Origin: Microgenomates group bacterium
GTDB taxonomy: Bacteria; Patescibacteriota; Microgenomatia; UBA10105; UBA927
Direction: 5' to 3'
Length of the DNA stretch: 64,000 nucleotides
Assembly: GCA_049287205.1 (NCBI GenBank)
Contig: JBAQFJ010000001.1
Coordinates: 122,042 to 186,041, forward strand
Positions 30,081 to 50,679 of the stretch are shown in pieces. The translations under genes and the position numbers were made by a program. The notes under the pieces were generated by a model. It saw nothing but the letters and a program-made list of their open reading frames with translations. It did no database searches and was not told the origin of the DNA. How positions within the stretch are numbered: position 1 is the stretch's first letter; the number at the start of each line of letters is the position of its first letter.

Positions 30081-30884
30081 TTAGCCGAGAGAAAAATGGA
30101 ACAGCGACTGTGACAGCAACCAGATGCCTTCAGATAAAATCAGGACTGCAATGAGTGTCTGCAGCAATTTTACATTGAGATATTTTGTGAGTGTTGGTCC
30201 AACGATTCCTCCAAAAAATGCTCCGATCGTTAAATTGATCAGGAGGTCGTAGGAAATGACTTTTTTGGATAGAAGATAAATAATAAATCCGGTAATGCAG
30301 ATAGGCACTTCGGAGAGCGTTGTGGAACCGATTGATTTTTTTGCATGGTTGCCGGAAAGCACTTGTCCACCTGTCATAAGCGGGCCAAACCCGCCGCCGG
30401 AAATACCTTTGTTAAATGCAGATATGATGGCAAGTCCGGTTATTTTTTTCCAAGAAAAATTAAACCGGCGTTTTAACAGAAGCACAACTCCTATAATGGT
30501 GACTAATACGCCAATATAGAGTTTTAAGATTTCTTTTGGAAGTTTGACTCCCAGTACCGCTCCGACAACGGTGGCTCCGACCCCCAAGAATCCCACAAGG
30601 AGAGAGATGCGGAGGTCTTTTGAAATAGAGAGATGTTTTTTCCCGTCCTCACCACCAACTACCAGAGATGGAAATAAATCCGCAGTTTTATATTTATTAT
30701 GAAAAAATGCGGCCATGAATCCGCCGACTGCCTGGGAAATTAAAATTGATGGCACCACGAGATTGGAAGAGAATCCAAAAATGATAAGTAGCGGCGAAAG
30801 GATTGTCCCGTATCCCATGCCAAGTCCCGAATCAATGACTTCCATAATGAATGCGAGCACGATAAGAAACAACGCATTTTCCAT
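30081..30884 (-). CDS. TauE/SafE (TSUP, DUF81) family membrane transporter
   Basis: 267 aa, 7-8 TM, Gly-rich repeats typical of sulfite/sulfonate exporter-type TSUP proteins; immediately downstream of sat/cysC. Confidence 0.6.
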   Translation of the reverse strand: MENALFLIVLAFIMEVIDSGLGMGYGTILSPLLIIFGFSSNLVVPSILISQAVGGFMAAFFHNKYKTADLFPSLVVGGEDGKKHLSISKDLRISLLVGFLGVGATVVGAVLGVKLPKEILKLYIGVLVTIIGVVLLLKRRFNFSWKKITGLAIISAFNKGISGGGFGPLMTGGQVLSGNHAKKSIGSTTLSEVPICITGFIIYLLSKKVISYDLLINLTIGAFFGGIVGPTLTKYLNVKLLQTLIAVLILSEGIWLLSQSLFHFSLG

Positions 30885-30888
30885 ATAT

Positions 30889-32631
30889 TTATCGAATATA
30901 CTGTTTTTTTTGCAAATAGTCGAGGATTACTTTCGCATTTTTTTCCGGCGTTGTCTTGACTGTTGAAAGGGACAGTTCCGGTGACTTTGGTATTTCATAT
31001 GGGTCATCTACACCGGTAAATCCCTTAATGAGTCCAAGTCTTGCTTGTTTATATAAGCCTTTCACATCTCTTTTTTCGCATACTGATCTCGGCGCGTGTA
31101 CATGCACAAGGATAAATGCGGTATCTTTCATCATTTGCCGTACTTGTTCTCTTGCATTTTCATAGGGACTGACAGCTGCACACAGGACTGCGCCGTTGTG
31201 TTTGACGATCTCACTCGCGACAAATCCAATGCGGAGAATGTTGATGTCGCGGTCTTCTTTGGAAAATCCGAGCCCTTTGGATAAATGCGTCCGTACTACG
31301 TCGCCGTCAAGCAGTGACACTTCACGGCCTCGTTCTTTGAGGAATGATAAGAGAATTTCCGCAATGGTCGTTTTGCCGGAACTGGGTAGTCCGGTAAACC
31401 ACACACAAAATCCCCGCTGATGCATCGGCGGGTATGCTTGAGATAAAATAGTACTGACTTCCGGTCTGGTAAACCATGTTGGGAGTGGTATTCCTTTTGC
31501 AAGATATTTGTCACGCACCTCGGTCCCTGACAATGAAAGGTACTTCGTTCGTTTGGGAAGTGATGCTATTTCTCTGTATTGTTTTTTGGCGGGAATGTAG
31601 ACCATTTCAGAAAAAGCAACCATGCAGACGCCGAGTTCTTCACTGTGTTTGGCAAATAATTCCTGTGCTGCATAGGGCTCATAAAACGGTTTTCCCTGCG
31701 AATCTACTCCTGGTCCTGCGTGGTCTCTGCCGACAATGAAATGATTTGCGCCGTAATTTCGCCTGATTATGCCGTGCCACAGTGCTTCTTTGGGTCCCGC
31801 CATTCGCATTGCAAGCGGCAGTACACCAAGCATGGTTGTTTTGTGGTCATAATAGGTTTTATATAACGCGGTATAGATTTGCGCGCGTTTGTAATATTCT
31901 ACGTCTCCTGGTTTTGTTACGCCGACAACCGGATGGAGAAGCAGTATTCCTTTAACCTGTTCTGCTGCACGTTTTGTCAATTCCTCATGCGCGCGGTGAA
32001 TCGGGTTTCGTGTCTGAAATGCGACAACGTCAGAAGCACCCATTGCTTCCAACTGATGTCGTACCTGATGAGGAGTCATGCGAAGAGAAGCAAAATCATA
32101 ATGTGTGGGAAGCTGTAAAACTGTGAGATGACCTGAAATATAATGGGATCCCCATGATGCCATTTCTGCAACCATTGGATGCCGTTGATCTGTTGTCCCA
32201 TACACCAGTTGCGCTTCTGTCTTATACTCCCATGGATATATTTCTTCAATTCTCATGATGGCGAGTGGCTCATTGTTTGGACTTCTAAGACAGACTTCGG
32301 TATCTAAATGTAGCTTTTCGCCGTCATGAACCGGCAGGGTAATAGGTATGGGAAACAGCATGCCATTTTTTAGCCGCATCAAATGCATCACTGTTTCATA
32401 GTTTGCTTTGTTCATGAACTGCGTGAGGGGAGAAAACGCGCCGGTTGCCAGTAATTCCAGATCACATACTGACCTGAGGGATAACTGCAGAGAAGGAAGT
32501 GTATTAATTTTCCGTTTCAGTTGTTGTCGTTTTTCTTCTTCCTTAACGTGCAAATGAATGAGTTTGTCTCCATATGCCGAGATGATATGTTTTTTCATGG
32601 TTGGTTGTTCGTGATTTGAGTATGATATCAT
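30889..32631 (-). CDS. bifunctional sulfate adenylyltransferase (ATP sulfurylase) / adenylylsulfate kinase
   Basis: N-part [17 protein letters not shown] and [12 protein letters not shown] (Sat). C-part [18 protein letters not shown] ... LLDGDVVR (CysC P-loop). Alternative start MKKHIIS at 32598. Confidence 0.85.
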
Positions 32632-48545: not shown

Positions 48546-48552
48546 GTGTTGT

Positions 48553-50679
48553 TTAGGGAAAATTAAGAATGGCCTGTTTGAGTGAGCCAACATCCGGTAT
48601 TCCTTTTTGTTCTACATCAGCGCAGTGTTGAGACGCGGATGTATTTGCTTTGCATTGTATCAGTTCTTGTTTTGCCGCATCAGTGTCATGCAATATGTTT
48701 TTTTTGAGGCTTGCCAGTTCGATGTAATAGTAACTTAATCCGGAATCTAATTGTTTTGCAAGTTCCCAGAACAGTTTTGTTCGGTTGGGAAATGTCGTGA
48801 TGCTTGCAAGGCCTGCAATATAATAAAGCCGTGACATGCGTTTTTCATGATTCATATCGTTATTAATGAGGTCACTTGTCATTGATGTGACCTCCCTGAC
48901 TTCGTTTTCTTCAAGTGGGCCCGCGTGAAGGATGGCATCTCTATACATCGGAGGAAGAAATTGCAGACTATACGCCTCAAATTGCATCCCTGCCTTTTGG
49001 TAGTTTTGTTGAAGAATCAGAAAATCAATGTATTGTACGTGATACTGCTCATTTTTTGGATAGAGTGCAATTAATTTTGTATATATGCTGTGTTTTTCTG
49101 CAACGGACAATGTAGCTCCATTTGTTTTTAGGATTGCGTCAATGATCTGGTGGTCGTTTTTGTGGAAAAAGGACAACATCTGGATTTGATGGTTGGTCAT
49201 GAGCGCCCCGTGTAGTTGTTGTTTTTGGATATAATCCGTGGCTAATTGGGTGTGAAACGGCATAACAGAGAGTGCGGCAGTTTGTTTAGACATAAATTGC
49301 AAGATTAATCCACTGAGTGACAGGCCATAAAACACCAGAAGACACAGAAGTACGACGTGAACGAGGAGCGGCGTATGGTGTGTGTTTTTGGTCTGTTTGT
49401 TTTTTACACCAAGACAGACGCCGAGCACTGCCAAGAACAGTATCCAAATGACAATAAAGTCTAAATTAAATTCATAGATGCTGTATAGTCCTGTTAGTAT
49501 TCCTCCTTCAAGAAGCGGCACTGCATATTTTTTTGTTTCGGTATCTAAAGACTTCAGATTGTGTATGCTTTGGTAAAAGAGCAGGTAGAGGAGAGTGAAG
49601 ATGCCAAATGCACCTAGGATGCCGAACTCAACCAGTGTTTGCAAAGGAAAACTGTGTGCGAATAATGAATAAACCTGCGGAAGTCTCTGTAGTCGTTGGG
49701 ATTGAAGAAAAAAAGTTCCCGGACCACTGCCTGCGATTGGGCGTTCCTGTATGGCAAGCAAAGATTGTTTCCAGTACTCCATACGATTTTGTATCGGGGT
49801 TTCTTTCGTAATAAACTGTTTTACGAGTTGTTTTGTGCTGTCAGTTTTAAATATATTTGGACCGGTGAAATGAAATAAACTGATAAATAACACACAGAAT
49901 ACCATGGCAACTCCTGCAAAGAACAGCTTGTGCTTTTTTAGGAGAAGTTTTCTTTGGGCTATCGCTATATACACACTATATCCTGCAATGAGTACCCATG
50001 CGCCTCTCGCAAACGTGGCTACCAGTACGATCATGGTGCAAAAAAAGACTGCGTAACTTTGCCATTTCTTTTGACGTATAGCGTTGTGCAACACGATGGG
50101 GATCAGAAAAATTAGGAGATGGGCAAGATAATTATGTCCGTAATGCGGAAACAGCATATTCATATCCGGAAGCAACGAGCTAAACTGCGGAAACAGGTTT
50201 ACAACGAGTGATGCGCATACAGAAGCTGTAGCCAAAAAAATAATTCCGTAATAACAATAGGCAAGTATTTTTTTATTCGCTATTGCGTAAAAGAAATAAA
50301 ATATAAAAAATCCTATGATGTATCTGTTTGTCGCATAGATGGAATAGGCGACACTGTCAGAAAAGAGAGACCTGATCAGTGCATATATGATAATGCCCCA
50401 CCACATCCATAAGAGAGGTTTTGGCAGTGTGTTTTGTTTGTGTTCGGTGAGGAAGCACCAGTACACACCGAGAAACAGTACATATCCCGATATGTAGACA
50501 TCAACAGTCTGTTGTTTCCCGTCTCCTAAGAAGACAGTAAAAAAAAGAAGCGCGAATAGTATAACCACTATTTTTTCTTCATTGGATACGGAACGAATTT
50601 TTGTATCTATTCGTTGAATAGCTGCTGCCAGATGTTTTCTCATACAAAAATGAGCGTGCTTTTTCTTGCGTTGCCACAT
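48553..50679 (-). CDS. O-antigen ligase-like membrane protein with C-terminal TPR-like soluble domain
   Basis: 708 aa; over 10 TM in the N-terminal 420 aa; alpha-helical repeat C-terminus. Confidence 0.5.
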   Translation of the reverse strand: MWQRKKKHAHFCMRKHLAAAIQRIDTKIRSVSNEEKIVVILFALLFFTVFLGDGKQQTVDVYISGYVLFLGVYWCFLTEHKQNTLPKPLLWMWWGIIIYALIRSLFSDSVAYSIYATNRYIIGFFIFYFFYAIANKKILAYCYYGIIFLATASVCASLVVNLFPQFSSLLPDMNMLFPHYGHNYLAHLLIFLIPIVLHNAIRQKKWQSYAVFFCTMIVLVATFARGAWVLIAGYSVYIAIAQRKLLLKKHKLFFAGVAMVFCVLFISLFHFTGPNIFKTDSTKQLVKQFITKETPIQNRMEYWKQSLLAIQERPIAGSGPGTFFLQSQRLQRLPQVYSLFAHSFPLQTLVEFGILGAFGIFTLLYLLFYQSIHNLKSLDTETKKYAVPLLEGGILTGLYSIYEFNLDFIVIWILFLAVLGVCLGVKNKQTKNTHHTPLLVHVVLLCLLVFYGLSLSGLILQFMSKQTAALSVMPFHTQLATDYIQKQQLHGALMTNHQIQMLSFFHKNDHQIIDAILKTNGATLSVAEKHSIYTKLIALYPKNEQYHVQYIDFLILQQNYQKAGMQFEAYSLQFLPPMYRDAILHAGPLEENEVREVTSMTSDLINNDMNHEKRMSRLYYIAGLASITTFPNRTKLFWELAKQLDSGLSYYYIELASLKKNILHDTDAAKQELIQCKANTSASQHCADVEQKGIPDVGSLKQAILNFP

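Follow-up and report, generated by a model that had tools for sequence, protein, structure and literature searches.

In rhizobia, NodPQ makes PAPS for NodH, the sulfotransferase of the Nod factor, and LpsS serves the LPS. In the mycobacterial sulfolipid-1 pathway, represented by CysDNC and Stf0, PAPS is used by a small Stf0-type sulfotransferase to sulfate a sugar, trehalose. Bifunctional Sat-CysC enzymes, which combine sulfate adenylyltransferase and APS kinase, serve assimilation in some bacteria. The xss cluster of the cyanobacterium Synechocystis, with synechan as its sulfated exopolysaccharide product, is of the Wzx/Wzy type and contains many glycosyltransferases together with Pfam-recognisable sulfotransferases (PMC8205485); Nod-factor sulfation is mentioned in the same paper.

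The locus described here belongs to a CPR bacterium, a Microgenomates group bacterium MAG. We analysed a stretch of 64 kb (the window), whose proteins are exact matches to the NCBI entries MFZ2024737 to MFZ2024787 on a single contig of 1,020,031 bp. ORF coordinates, Pfam and NCBIfam confirmed the ORFs and domain assignments between positions 30081 and 50679, and the gene content is that given in a first-pass annotation, with two corrections. A PAPS module, composed of a TauE/TSUP transporter and a bifunctional Sat-CysC, both on the minus strand, is located next to a Wzx/Wzy-type glycan locus of ~18 kb. The two are separated by 65 bp (32632..32696), or by 98 bp if the NCBI start of Sat-CysC is used. 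As these two blocks are transcribed divergently, they do not form one operon. A promoter scan of the 65-bp region found sites no more numerous than in shuffled controls. The second correction concerns the five GT4 glycosyltransferases originally counted, in place of which we find one GT2 domain and four GT4-type genes, including a weak one.

The Wzx/Wzy-type organization and the many glycosyltransferases are shared with xss. In contrast to that cluster, where the sulfotransferases are internal and no PAPS-synthesis genes are listed (PMC8205485), the PAPS genes flank the locus of the window and the sulfotransferase is found elsewhere. We consider it likely that this ~1 Mb CPR genome carries a PAPS-supply module back-to-back with a Wzx/Wzy surface-glycan locus, and that the PAPS is used by a canonical sulfotransferase encoded at a distance.

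Sat-CysC (30889..32631, minus strand; MFZ2024767.1) is a predicted PAPS synthase with an NCBIfam NF004040 score of 797 bits (cut-off 669). It contains the Pfam domains PUA_2, ATP-sulfurylase, and APS_kinase. With the NCBI start at M12, the protein has 569 aa and its end is at 32598. The closest solved relative is the SAT/APS kinase of Aquifex aeolicus (2GKS, 778.6 bits), which also belongs to NF004040 and has the same domain architecture with 63% identity. The Sat-CysC motifs (28 protein letters, not shown, and LDGDVVR) are present, and the catalytic motifs align with 2GKS. In contrast to the Aquifex enzyme, the CPR protein, whose activity is predicted by homology, is paired with a TSUP permease and adjoins glycan genes.

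The permease gene (30081..30884, minus strand; MFZ2024766.1, 267 aa) is located 4 bp downstream of Sat-CysC on the same strand, in agreement with the pairing first proposed. It matches the TauE/SafE (TSUP) family (Pfam PF01925, 83.4 bits), and a simple hydropathy scan indicates approximately 6 membrane spans. The family includes the CysZ sulfate importer of C. glutamicum (PMC5840216), with which the window protein shares the Pfam TauE domain and the genomic association with sulfate-activating enzymes. It is close to none of the characterised TSUP members, and its role as the sulfate importer of the PAPS module is probable.

The plus-strand cassette opens with a GT-B glycosyltransferase that is weakly GT4/TuaH-like (32697..33866; MFZ2024768.1; Glycos_transf_1, 29 bits). 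A radical-SAM/SPASM enzyme follows (33891..34862, plus strand; Radical_SAM 57 bits, SPASM 25 bits); its CX3CX2C motif spans residues 15-22. Among its nearest solved relatives is the cytosylglucuronate decarboxylase BlsE (7vob, E 1e-10), and the enzyme probably modifies sugars. Next on the same strand are a Wzx-type flippase (34859..36118; Polysacc_synt, 69.8 bits) with 11 membrane spans predicted by hydropathy, and two GT4 glycosyltransferases. The first of these (36122..37231; MFZ2024771.1) matches Glycos_transf_1 with 121.7 bits as well as Glyco_transf_4. The second (37228..38454; Glycos_transf_1, 102 bits), placed from its translation, has an ORF that opens with a TTG at 37171, and the ATG at 37228 is the likely start.

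A DUF4330 protein (38459..39334, plus strand; PF14221, 29.8 bits, cut-off 27.6) shows one membrane span near its N-terminus (residues 24-42) in the hydropathy scan, and from its sequence the remainder probably faces the outside. The plus-strand genes continue with a Wzy/O-antigen-ligase-like polytopic membrane protein (39342..40883; Wzy_C, 62.4 bits; 10 spans), a class I SAM-dependent methyltransferase (40888..41619; Methyltransf_11, 73.8 bits; start from the translation), and a GT2 domain fused to a GT-C (PMT_2) membrane domain (41616..43958; MFZ2024776.1; Glycos_transf_2 116 bits, PMT_2 32 bits). This fusion has 10 membrane spans and weak NCBIfam matches to ArnC, AglJ, and PpgS, and its GT2 domain resembles polyprenyl-phosphate sugar synthases. 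Beyond it we find a PTPS_related polytopic protein, read as GT-C-like (44004..45659, minus strand; PF10131, 50.3 bits; 9 spans), and a 649-aa polytopic membrane protein (45583..47532, plus strand) with 9 spans in the hydropathy scan. Two minus-strand genes complete the region, a GT4 of the DUF1972/Cps2T-like type (47544..48593; MFZ2024779.1; Glycos_transf_1 63.9 bits, DUF1972, NCBIfam Cps2T 61.9 bits) and an O-antigen-ligase-like Wzy_C membrane protein (48553..50679; 68.9 bits; 9 spans), the latter with weak C-terminal matches to NCBIfam TPR-repeat families.

Profile searches detect no sulfotransferase, PAPS reductase, or sulfite reductase in the locus or in the rest of the 64 kb window. A lineage-specific sulfotransferase HMM, run unfiltered against the six frames of the window, gave no match (best E 5.7), and neither did tblastn with CPR sulfotransferases (best E 0.074). 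The first-pass annotation, which had seen no recognisable sulfotransferase and no cysH/cysJI in the locus, is borne out by these searches. None of the window's genes could be assigned to a PAP phosphatase (CysQ or NrnA).

That annotation had gone on to place the sulfotransferase among the unassigned genes of the locus, acting by a non-canonical route. Be it the DUF4330 protein, the radical-SAM protein, the weak GT4 or the 649-aa membrane protein, such an enzyme would draw on the PAPS of the adjoining module. Compatible with it are the absence of a recognisable sulfotransferase from the window, the position of the PAPS genes right beside the locus, which the closest relative MAG (L004) retains, and the lack of any match of the 649-aa protein to Pfam, NCBIfam, or the sulfotransferase HMM. 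The AlphaFold model of the weak GT4 (pLDDT 92.9) shows an ordinary GT-B fold, with MshA, BshA, glycogen synthase, and GumK as its best matches. The bulk of the DUF4330 protein, from its predicted topology, would be kept away from cytoplasmic PAPS. Furthermore, the DUF4330/radical-SAM/Wzx/Wzy cassette recurs in three other genomes (L005-L007), with the radical-SAM protein 60-63% conserved, and Sat-CysC is absent from its 10 kb flanks there. Related CPR loci in which CysC is linked to glycan genes employ canonical Sulfotransfer_3 enzymes. Together with the canonical enzyme described below, these observations make a sulfotransferase hidden in the locus highly improbable.

The same MAG encodes a canonical NodH/Stf0-type sulfotransferase, MFZ2025581.1 (P0154), outside the window. 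From the identical 1,020,031-bp contig size, the accession series, the organism name, and the Logan sample, we infer that it lies on the chromosome of the window, ~813 protein accessions from the PAPS genes. It matches Pfam Sulfotransfer_3 (32.8 bits, cut-off 27) and Stf0 (PF09037; 24.5 bits, cut-off 22). Residues R15, G17, R115, and S124 are invariant in the family and S18 nearly so, at what we take to be the expected positions of the sulfotransferase PAPS-binding motifs. In the predicted model (pLDDT 89.6), the top 50 fold matches are PAPS sulfotransferases only, and the 1TEX fold is matched. Because such an ordinary enzyme is encoded elsewhere on the chromosome, the data point to conventional glycan sulfation and not to a new sulfation route. 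No novel sulfotransferase is needed to explain the locus.

The acceptor of MFZ2025581.1 could in principle be something other than a glycan, for instance tyrosine residues in a secreted protein or peptide (as for RaxST/TPST), a lipid, or a small metabolite, with the glycan locus of the window unrelated. A non-sugar acceptor is possible because the best fold matches of the model are tyrosylprotein sulfotransferases, at moderate TM-scores of ~0.4-0.55, and the gene also lies outside the locus. By sequence, its best match of solved structure is the 'LPS sulfotransferase NodH' (E 2e-9). The gene order around it is hypothetical protein, sulfotransferase, GT4: it overlaps the GT4 gene (MFZ2025580) and is preceded by two paralogous genes for hypothetical proteins devoid of Pfam matches, including MFZ2025582 (locus tag WAV51_04855), a family that is GT-A-like only by a DxD-like motif. 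The sulfotransferase and GT4 pair recurs in L027, L005, and L011, and in relatives the sulfotransferase is fused to GT2 and GT4 or adjoins Wzm/Wzt-type ABC transporters. A non-glycan acceptor is, from this context, improbable.

For the preferred reading, glycan sulfation by MFZ2025581.1, we propose the following mechanism. The TSUP permease would import sulfate, which Sat-CysC is predicted, from its strong homology to the characterised Aquifex enzyme and its intact catalytic motifs, to convert with 2 ATP to APS and then to PAPS. MFZ2025581.1 would consume the PAPS in the cytoplasm; its putative acceptor is a sugar carried by a glycan intermediate, either lipid-linked or nucleotide-activated. 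The sulfated unit may then be flipped, polymerised or ligated, and decorated further on the outer side of the membrane by proteins like those of the window (Wzx, the Wzy_C proteins, the GT2-PMT_2 fusion, and the GT-C-like proteins). The acceptor would be a product of the window's locus or of a second glycan cluster near MFZ2025581.1. The sulfotransferase gene lies far from the locus, and the adjacency of the PAPS module to these glycan genes could be incidental.

The proposed arrangement is reminiscent of rhizobial NodPQ and NodH, in that dedicated PAPS synthesis would feed a NodH-family sulfotransferase acting on a glycoconjugate. The synthases differ, NodPQ being of the CysD/CysN-CysC type and the CPR enzyme a homomeric Sat-CysC fusion, and in this genome, in contrast to the rhizobial systems, the sulfotransferase gene and those for PAPS synthesis occupy different loci. 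The likeness to mycobacterial Stf0 lies in the PF09037 and 1TEX matches of MFZ2025581.1; the PAPS synthase is again of another type, with no sign of polyketide or lipid genes. Glycan sulfation here would be conventional, yet in an unusual organism, a CPR bacterium with a tiny genome.

A third use of PAPS would be assimilatory, with PAPS reductase and sulfite reductase encoded elsewhere making cysteine and the glycan adjacency incidental. Some ~0.95 Mb of the genome lies beyond the searched window, and TauE family members carry sulfite-exporter annotation. Against this, cysH and sir are absent from the 64 kb window, CysH/Sir was never seen beside Sat-CysC in the contexts of the seven closest relatives, and PAPS_reduct and NIR_SIR are absent from the 25 commonest families immediately flanking 73 metagenomic Sat-CysC genes. 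To our knowledge, CPR bacteria of ~1 Mb generally lack amino-acid biosynthesis, and this genome retains a predicted PAPS-dependent sulfotransferase. We regard the assimilatory use as unlikely.

All closest Sat-CysC relatives examined sit among glycan genes. Because the Sat-CysC or CysC genes of relatives lie in glycan loci, several times adjoining canonical sulfotransferases and in no case CysH/Sir, PAPS is most plausibly the sulfuryl donor for a sulfated surface glycan. The original suggestion to this effect is thus supported by the ~1 Mb CPR genome, the relatives' contexts, the adjoining sulfotransferases, and the neighbour census. In the P0005 contig, a sulfotransferase gene overlaps the end of Sat-CysC, and in the P0006 contigs Sat-CysC is followed by a 107-aa ORF and a 1210-aa sulfotransferase-GT2-GT4 fusion. 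In L019 and L022, Sat-CysC or CysC is followed first by ABC-2 and ABC genes and next by a Sulfotransfer_3 gene; in L011, CysC is found with a sulfotransferase-like ORF. Across 38 CPR loci, Sat/CysC co-occurs with a sulfotransferase within 10 kb (Fisher p = 0.0045).

L004 is fully syntenic with the window and the relatives' Sat-CysC genes lie in glycan loci, whereas the cassettes of L005-L007, which like that of L004 include the DUF4330 gene, have no Sat-CysC within 10 kb. Full-length homologues of the weak GT4 are found in ~38 CPR loci, only 4 of them with Sat or CysC within 10 kb. In L005, a GT4-sulfotransferase pair directly adjoins the cassette shared with the window.

The census ranks TauE first among the families immediately next to Sat-CysC (13/124), where epimerases, sulfotransferases, PMT, GT4, and Wzx are also found. 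The Sat-CysC and TauE pair is kept in L004, L002, L003, and the P0002 contig, in the last beside an ABC-2 transporter, GT2, methyltransferase, and GT4-like genes. An ABC-2 gene and several glycosyltransferases precede Sat-CysC in the P0009 contig, and a PMT_2 gene overlaps its start in L002. In L003, the gene divergent to Sat-CysC encodes a GT4 that shares 46% identity with the GT4 linked to the sulfotransferase in the window's genome.

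The PAPS module consists of two genes on the minus strand. The first (30889-32631) encodes a 580-residue bifunctional ATP sulfurylase-APS kinase, Sat-CysC, deposited as MFZ2024767.1 with 569 residues and a start at M12. Pfam recognizes PUA_2, ATP-sulfurylase and APS_kinase domains in this protein, and over its full length it scores 797 bits against the curated NCBIfam equivalog NF004040, above the cut-off of 669. The motifs QxRNPxHxxH and GRDHAG of Sat and the P-loop GxxxxGK[ST] and LDGD of CysC are intact; the catalytic motifs (28 residues, not shown, and LDGDVVR) align with the Aquifex aeolicus enzyme 2GKS, the closest relative among solved structures. 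Strong homology identifies the protein as a PAPS synthase, predicted to form PAPS from sulfate and ATP.

Four bases downstream of Sat-CysC and on the same strand (30081-30884), a TauE/SafE (TSUP) permease of 267 residues is encoded (MFZ2024766.1). It matches PF01925 with 83.4 bits against a gathering cut-off of 32.6, and a simple scan indicates a polytopic protein with about six hydrophobic spans. The gene is paired with Sat-CysC both in the window and in relatives, and from this genomic context we infer that the permease imports sulfate; export of sulfite or sulfonate is the alternative. The sulfate importer CysZ of C. glutamicum belongs to the TSUP family, and in some sulfate reducers TSUP genes are located near sat (PMC5840216).

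The glycan locus starts 65 bp from Sat-CysC, on the opposite strand. The PAPS module, which the first-pass annotation had placed at the head of the locus, is thus transcribed away from the glycan genes, and the two do not form a single operon. Apart from this and the number of GT4 genes, the earlier description is right. In the divergent region, a scan for promoters and terminators did no better than in shuffled controls. The first gene of the locus encodes a weakly matching GT4-like protein (32697-33866, plus strand) and is followed by genes for a radical-SAM/SPASM enzyme, a Wzx flippase (Polysacc_synt, 69.8 bits), two GT4 proteins and a DUF4330 protein. Next come a Wzy_C protein, a SAM methyltransferase, a GT2-PMT_2 fusion and a PTPS_related membrane protein; the locus ends with a 649-residue membrane protein outside any family (45583-47532), a GT4 and a Wzy_C protein with weak TPR matches. 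With Wzx, two Wzy_C proteins (62.4 and 68.9 bits) and several glycosyltransferases, the locus is of the Wzx/Wzy type. The glycosyltransferases are four of GT4 type plus a single GT2 domain, where five GT4 genes had been counted earlier. No Pfam family of an initiating phosphoglycosyl transferase (WbaP/Bac_transf or WecA/MraY-like) is present in the locus or the window, and this enzyme may be encoded elsewhere in the genome.

The GT2-PMT_2 fusion (41616-43958, plus strand) is a 780-residue protein in which a GT2 domain is joined to a GT-C membrane domain (PMT_2; 10 membrane spans). The GT2 domain weakly resembles ArnC, AglJ and PpgS, which make polyprenyl-phosphate sugars. The fusion appears to unite both steps of extracytoplasmic glycosylation in one polypeptide. 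The 64 kb contain three Wzy_C (O-antigen-ligase-like) membrane proteins (39342-40883, 48553-50679 and 55291-57405), the third lying beyond the flagged region; two of the three have C-terminal TPR-like regions.

The window contains no recognizable sulfotransferase or reductase, as had been noted from the sequence. Profiles of five sulfotransferase families (PF00685, PF13469, PF09037, PF03567 and PF17784) matched none of the 17 proteins encoded within 26070-50679 at E<=0.01, and nothing in the rest of the window at E<=0.001. Nor did Pfam identify a sulfotransferase, a reductase of PAPS or sulfite, or CysQ among all locus proteins and the other 35 open reading frames of the window. An unfiltered search of every six-frame segment with a sulfotransferase HMM built for the lineage reached a best E of 5.7, and tblastn of the window with two CPR sulfotransferases a best E of 0.074. 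CysH and CysJI/Sir of assimilatory sulfate reduction are absent from the 64 kb.

It had been suggested that the sulfotransferase is hidden among the unassigned genes of the locus. The weak GT4 was rejected as a cryptic sulfotransferase on its fold and on the distribution of its homologues. Its model (pLDDT 92.9) shows a GT-B fold whose best matches are MshA, BshA, glycogen synthase and GumK. Full-length homologues occur in about 38 CPR loci, just four of which have Sat or CysC within 10 kb, leaving about 34 without. The DUF4330 protein has one membrane span, at its N-terminus, a topology that probably places its bulk outside the cell, away from PAPS. Together with the weak GT4, radical-SAM, Wzx, Wzy_C and two GT4 genes, it forms a cassette that recurs in three further loci (L005, L006 and L007), none with Sat-CysC in the 10 kb flanks. 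On the single N-terminal span and this distribution of the cassette, the protein was rejected as well. The radical-SAM protein has a CX3CX2C motif, and among solved structures it is most closely related to SkfB and to BlsE, a decarboxylase of sugar nucleosides. The 649-residue membrane protein has no family match. Taken together, the evidence from the locus points to no hidden sulfotransferase.

A conventional sulfotransferase is encoded elsewhere in the same genome. Using the enzyme on a contig (L027) of the closest-relative MAG as query, we found MFZ2025581.1, 64% identical and recorded as 'sulfotransferase [Microgenomates group bacterium]'. The protein scores 32.8 bits against PF13469 (Sulfotransfer_3; cut-off 27) and also passes the Stf0 cut-off, and its top sequence match among solved structures is 'LPS sulfotransferase NodH'. 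Residues R15, G17, R115 and S124 are invariant in the family and S18 is nearly so; these five residues lie at what we take to be the two expected PAPS-binding motifs of sulfotransferases. In its structural model (pLDDT 89.6), all 50 of the 50 best fold matches are PAPS-dependent sulfotransferases. The profile, the NodH match, the residues and the fold thus agree that the genome does have a conventional sulfotransferase.

The shared contig size of 1,020,031 bp, the accession series, the organism name and the Logan sample indicate that MFZ2025581.1 probably lies on the contig of the window. About 813 protein accessions separate it from the window, which at the density of the window (about 1.07 kb per protein) would by our estimate correspond to roughly 0.85 Mb of linear distance, or less if the chromosome is circular. 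Its neighbours are MFZ2025580, a GT4 whose gene it overlaps, and MFZ2025582 (locus tag WAV51_04855), and the gene sits after two paralogous genes for hypothetical proteins. A family of about 317 residues without Pfam match, to which MFZ2025582.1 (545-1498 of locus L083) belongs, recurs in L027, L011, L020, L022 and L036. In these CPR glycan loci it is often duplicated and lies next to a gene for a sulfotransferase or for CysC. The DxD-like 'DSDVLF' in the L027 copy suggests that the family may be GT-A-like.

The retention of the PAPS module beside this particular locus would be accounted for if, in addition to the canonical enzyme encoded elsewhere, an unassigned locus protein were a second, non-canonical enzyme that transfers sulfuryl groups to the glycan made here. 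The main candidates would be the 649-residue membrane protein and the radical-SAM/SPASM enzyme. We regard such an enzyme as very improbable. The proposal that PAPS serves sulfation is supported, and the non-canonical route is not, given the canonical sulfotransferase and the GT-B fold of the weak GT4.

The surroundings of Sat-CysC in related genomes tie the module to glycan genes. The closest relative (L004) is fully syntenic with the window, with a Sat-CysC of 90% identity. Around the 77% identical homologue P0002, Sat-CysC and TauE adjoin ABC-2/ABC, GT2, methyltransferase and GT4-like genes. In P0004 a PMT_2 gene overlaps the start of Sat-CysC, in P0005 a sulfotransferase gene overlaps its end, and in P0006 a 107-residue open reading frame separates it from a 1210-residue sulfotransferase-GT2-GT4 fusion. 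P0003 is accompanied by a divergent GT4, which shares 46% identity with the GT4 whose gene overlaps that of the sulfotransferase in the window's genome, and P0009 is preceded by an ABC-2 gene and glycosyltransferases. Downstream of Sat-CysC, the Woesebacteria locus L019 has genes for an ABC-2 permease and an ATPase and, next to these, one for a Sulfotransfer_3/Sulfotransfer_1 protein (E 3e-31). The Gottesmanbacteria locus L022 has a CysC-only protein, then again this transporter pair, and a Sulfotransfer_3 enzyme (E 2e-17), homologues of which are also found in L027 and L005. The link between sat/cysC and glycan genes, whose absence would have counted against the proposal, is thus conserved: all closest Sat-CysC relatives with readable context sit among glycan genes.

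Among the 38 CPR loci, three (L011, L019 and L022) have both Sat/CysC and a sulfotransferase within 10 kb, where about 0.5 would be expected (Fisher p = 0.0045). As a background census we used metagenomic Sat-CysC relatives of <=61% identity among the matches listed. In 73 such loci, among the matches listed, TauE is the commonest family (13 of 124 immediate neighbours), followed by sugar epimerases, sulfotransferases, PMT, GT4 and Wzx; neither PAPS reductase nor sulfite reductase is among the 25 commonest. Of 80 metagenomic Sat-CysC loci among the matches listed, at least 10 have a sulfotransferase-like open reading frame within 10 kb. A phmmer search with the TauE of the window recovered one neighbour only, which we attribute to divergence of the family, so that the Pfam census was used instead. 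A search of genome contigs with Sat-CysC as sole query gave no match.

We propose that the TSUP permease would bring in sulfate and Sat-CysC would make PAPS, with which the sulfotransferase would, in the cytoplasm, sulfate a sugar on an intermediate of glycan synthesis. A Wzx-type flippase would then move the sulfated unit across the membrane, and Wzy_C and GT-C proteins would process it. The acceptor could be made either by the locus of the window or by a second cluster. In L005 a GT4 gene paired with a sulfotransferase gene directly adjoins the cassette that is also present in the window, an arrangement consistent with one pathway; in the lineage of the window, pair and cassette lie apart. 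The same logic underlies rhizobial NodPQ/NodH and LPS sulfation, mycobacterial CysDNC/Stf0 and the cyanobacterial xss cluster for synechan (PMC8205485). Unlike these systems, the present one combines a homomeric Sat-CysC fusion with a TSUP permease, its PAPS genes lie apart from the sulfotransferase, and its host is a CPR bacterium. A sulfotransferase inside the glycan cluster, as in xss, is found in L005, L011, L019, L022, L027 and the P0005 and P0006 contigs, and none is found there in the window.

A CPR genome of about 1 Mb thus keeps a permease with sulfate as putative substrate, a PAPS synthase and a sulfotransferase, and in several Microgenomates relatives such genes belong to glycan loci of the Wzx/Wzy or ABC type. 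The pattern suggests that this lineage, which depends on other cells, has sulfated surface glycans as a recurrent feature, and these glycans could serve attachment or charge shielding. The enzymology itself is conventional. A 2021 study stated that sulfated extracellular polysaccharides had, among bacteria, been reported from cyanobacteria only (PMC8205485), and our literature searches on CPR/Patescibacteria sulfotransferases, PAPS or APS kinase yielded no description of CPR sulfation, which makes the genomic pattern a modest, testable lead.

Several CPR glycan loci have further unusual proteins. Stand-alone APS kinases of 319-322 residues are encoded in L022 (19901-20860, minus strand) and L011 (13024-13992, minus strand), in glycan loci with a sulfotransferase and with no Sat domain detected in the stretch fetched; the L022 protein has an N-terminal extension of about 147 residues without Pfam match. 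The 1210-residue fusion (6411-10043 of L166/L167) joins Sulfotransfer_3, GT2 and GT4, and the Sat-CysC upstream of it is 63% identical to that of the window. QueC-like proteins (PF06508) are encoded inside glycan loci in L005 (5242-6153) and the P0002 contig (2587-3549), which also carry a sulfotransferase and Sat-CysC, respectively.

About 5 kb from the PAPS module, a ComB-like 2-phosphosulfolactate phosphatase is encoded (24254-24928, plus strand; PF04029, 125 bits; MFZ2024762.1). A tie to the PAPS module was dropped, as the window has no phosphosulfolactate synthase (ComA) and the corresponding L004 stretch no ComB homologue. The following ArsR-type HTH gene (25530-25853, plus strand) is syntenic in L004 (92%). 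Directly downstream of the TauE gene end are two genes that are also syntenic in L004: a 753-residue open reading frame (26070-28331, plus strand) with a probable internal start at a lipoprotein-like signal (MDKMNVAVVLTIGAAATSGC), and a gene for a secreted, Cys-rich protein that weakly matches DUF7305 (28378-30033, plus strand).

The host belongs to the CPR/Patescibacteria and has a genome of roughly 1 Mb, represented by the 1,020,031-bp contig. On this contig of a 'Microgenomates group bacterium' MAG, NCBI records a protein with 100% identity to the weak GT4. An L10 leader and tRNA genes mark the window as bacterial, its G+C content is even along its length (38-45%), and exact NCBI look-ups assign its proteins the accessions MFZ2024737 to MFZ2024787. 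Records titled 'uncultured Gammaproteobacteria' or 'Pseudomonadales' (L004, L005, L006, L027 and others) resemble the Microgenomates MAG, and their titles look like mislabels of Patescibacteria MAGs. Within this bacterial genome, the UMP kinase (50972-51721, plus strand) is of the archaeal type, scoring 156.4 bits against TIGR02076, just below the cut-off of 158.05, and just 34.8 bits against the bacterial model.
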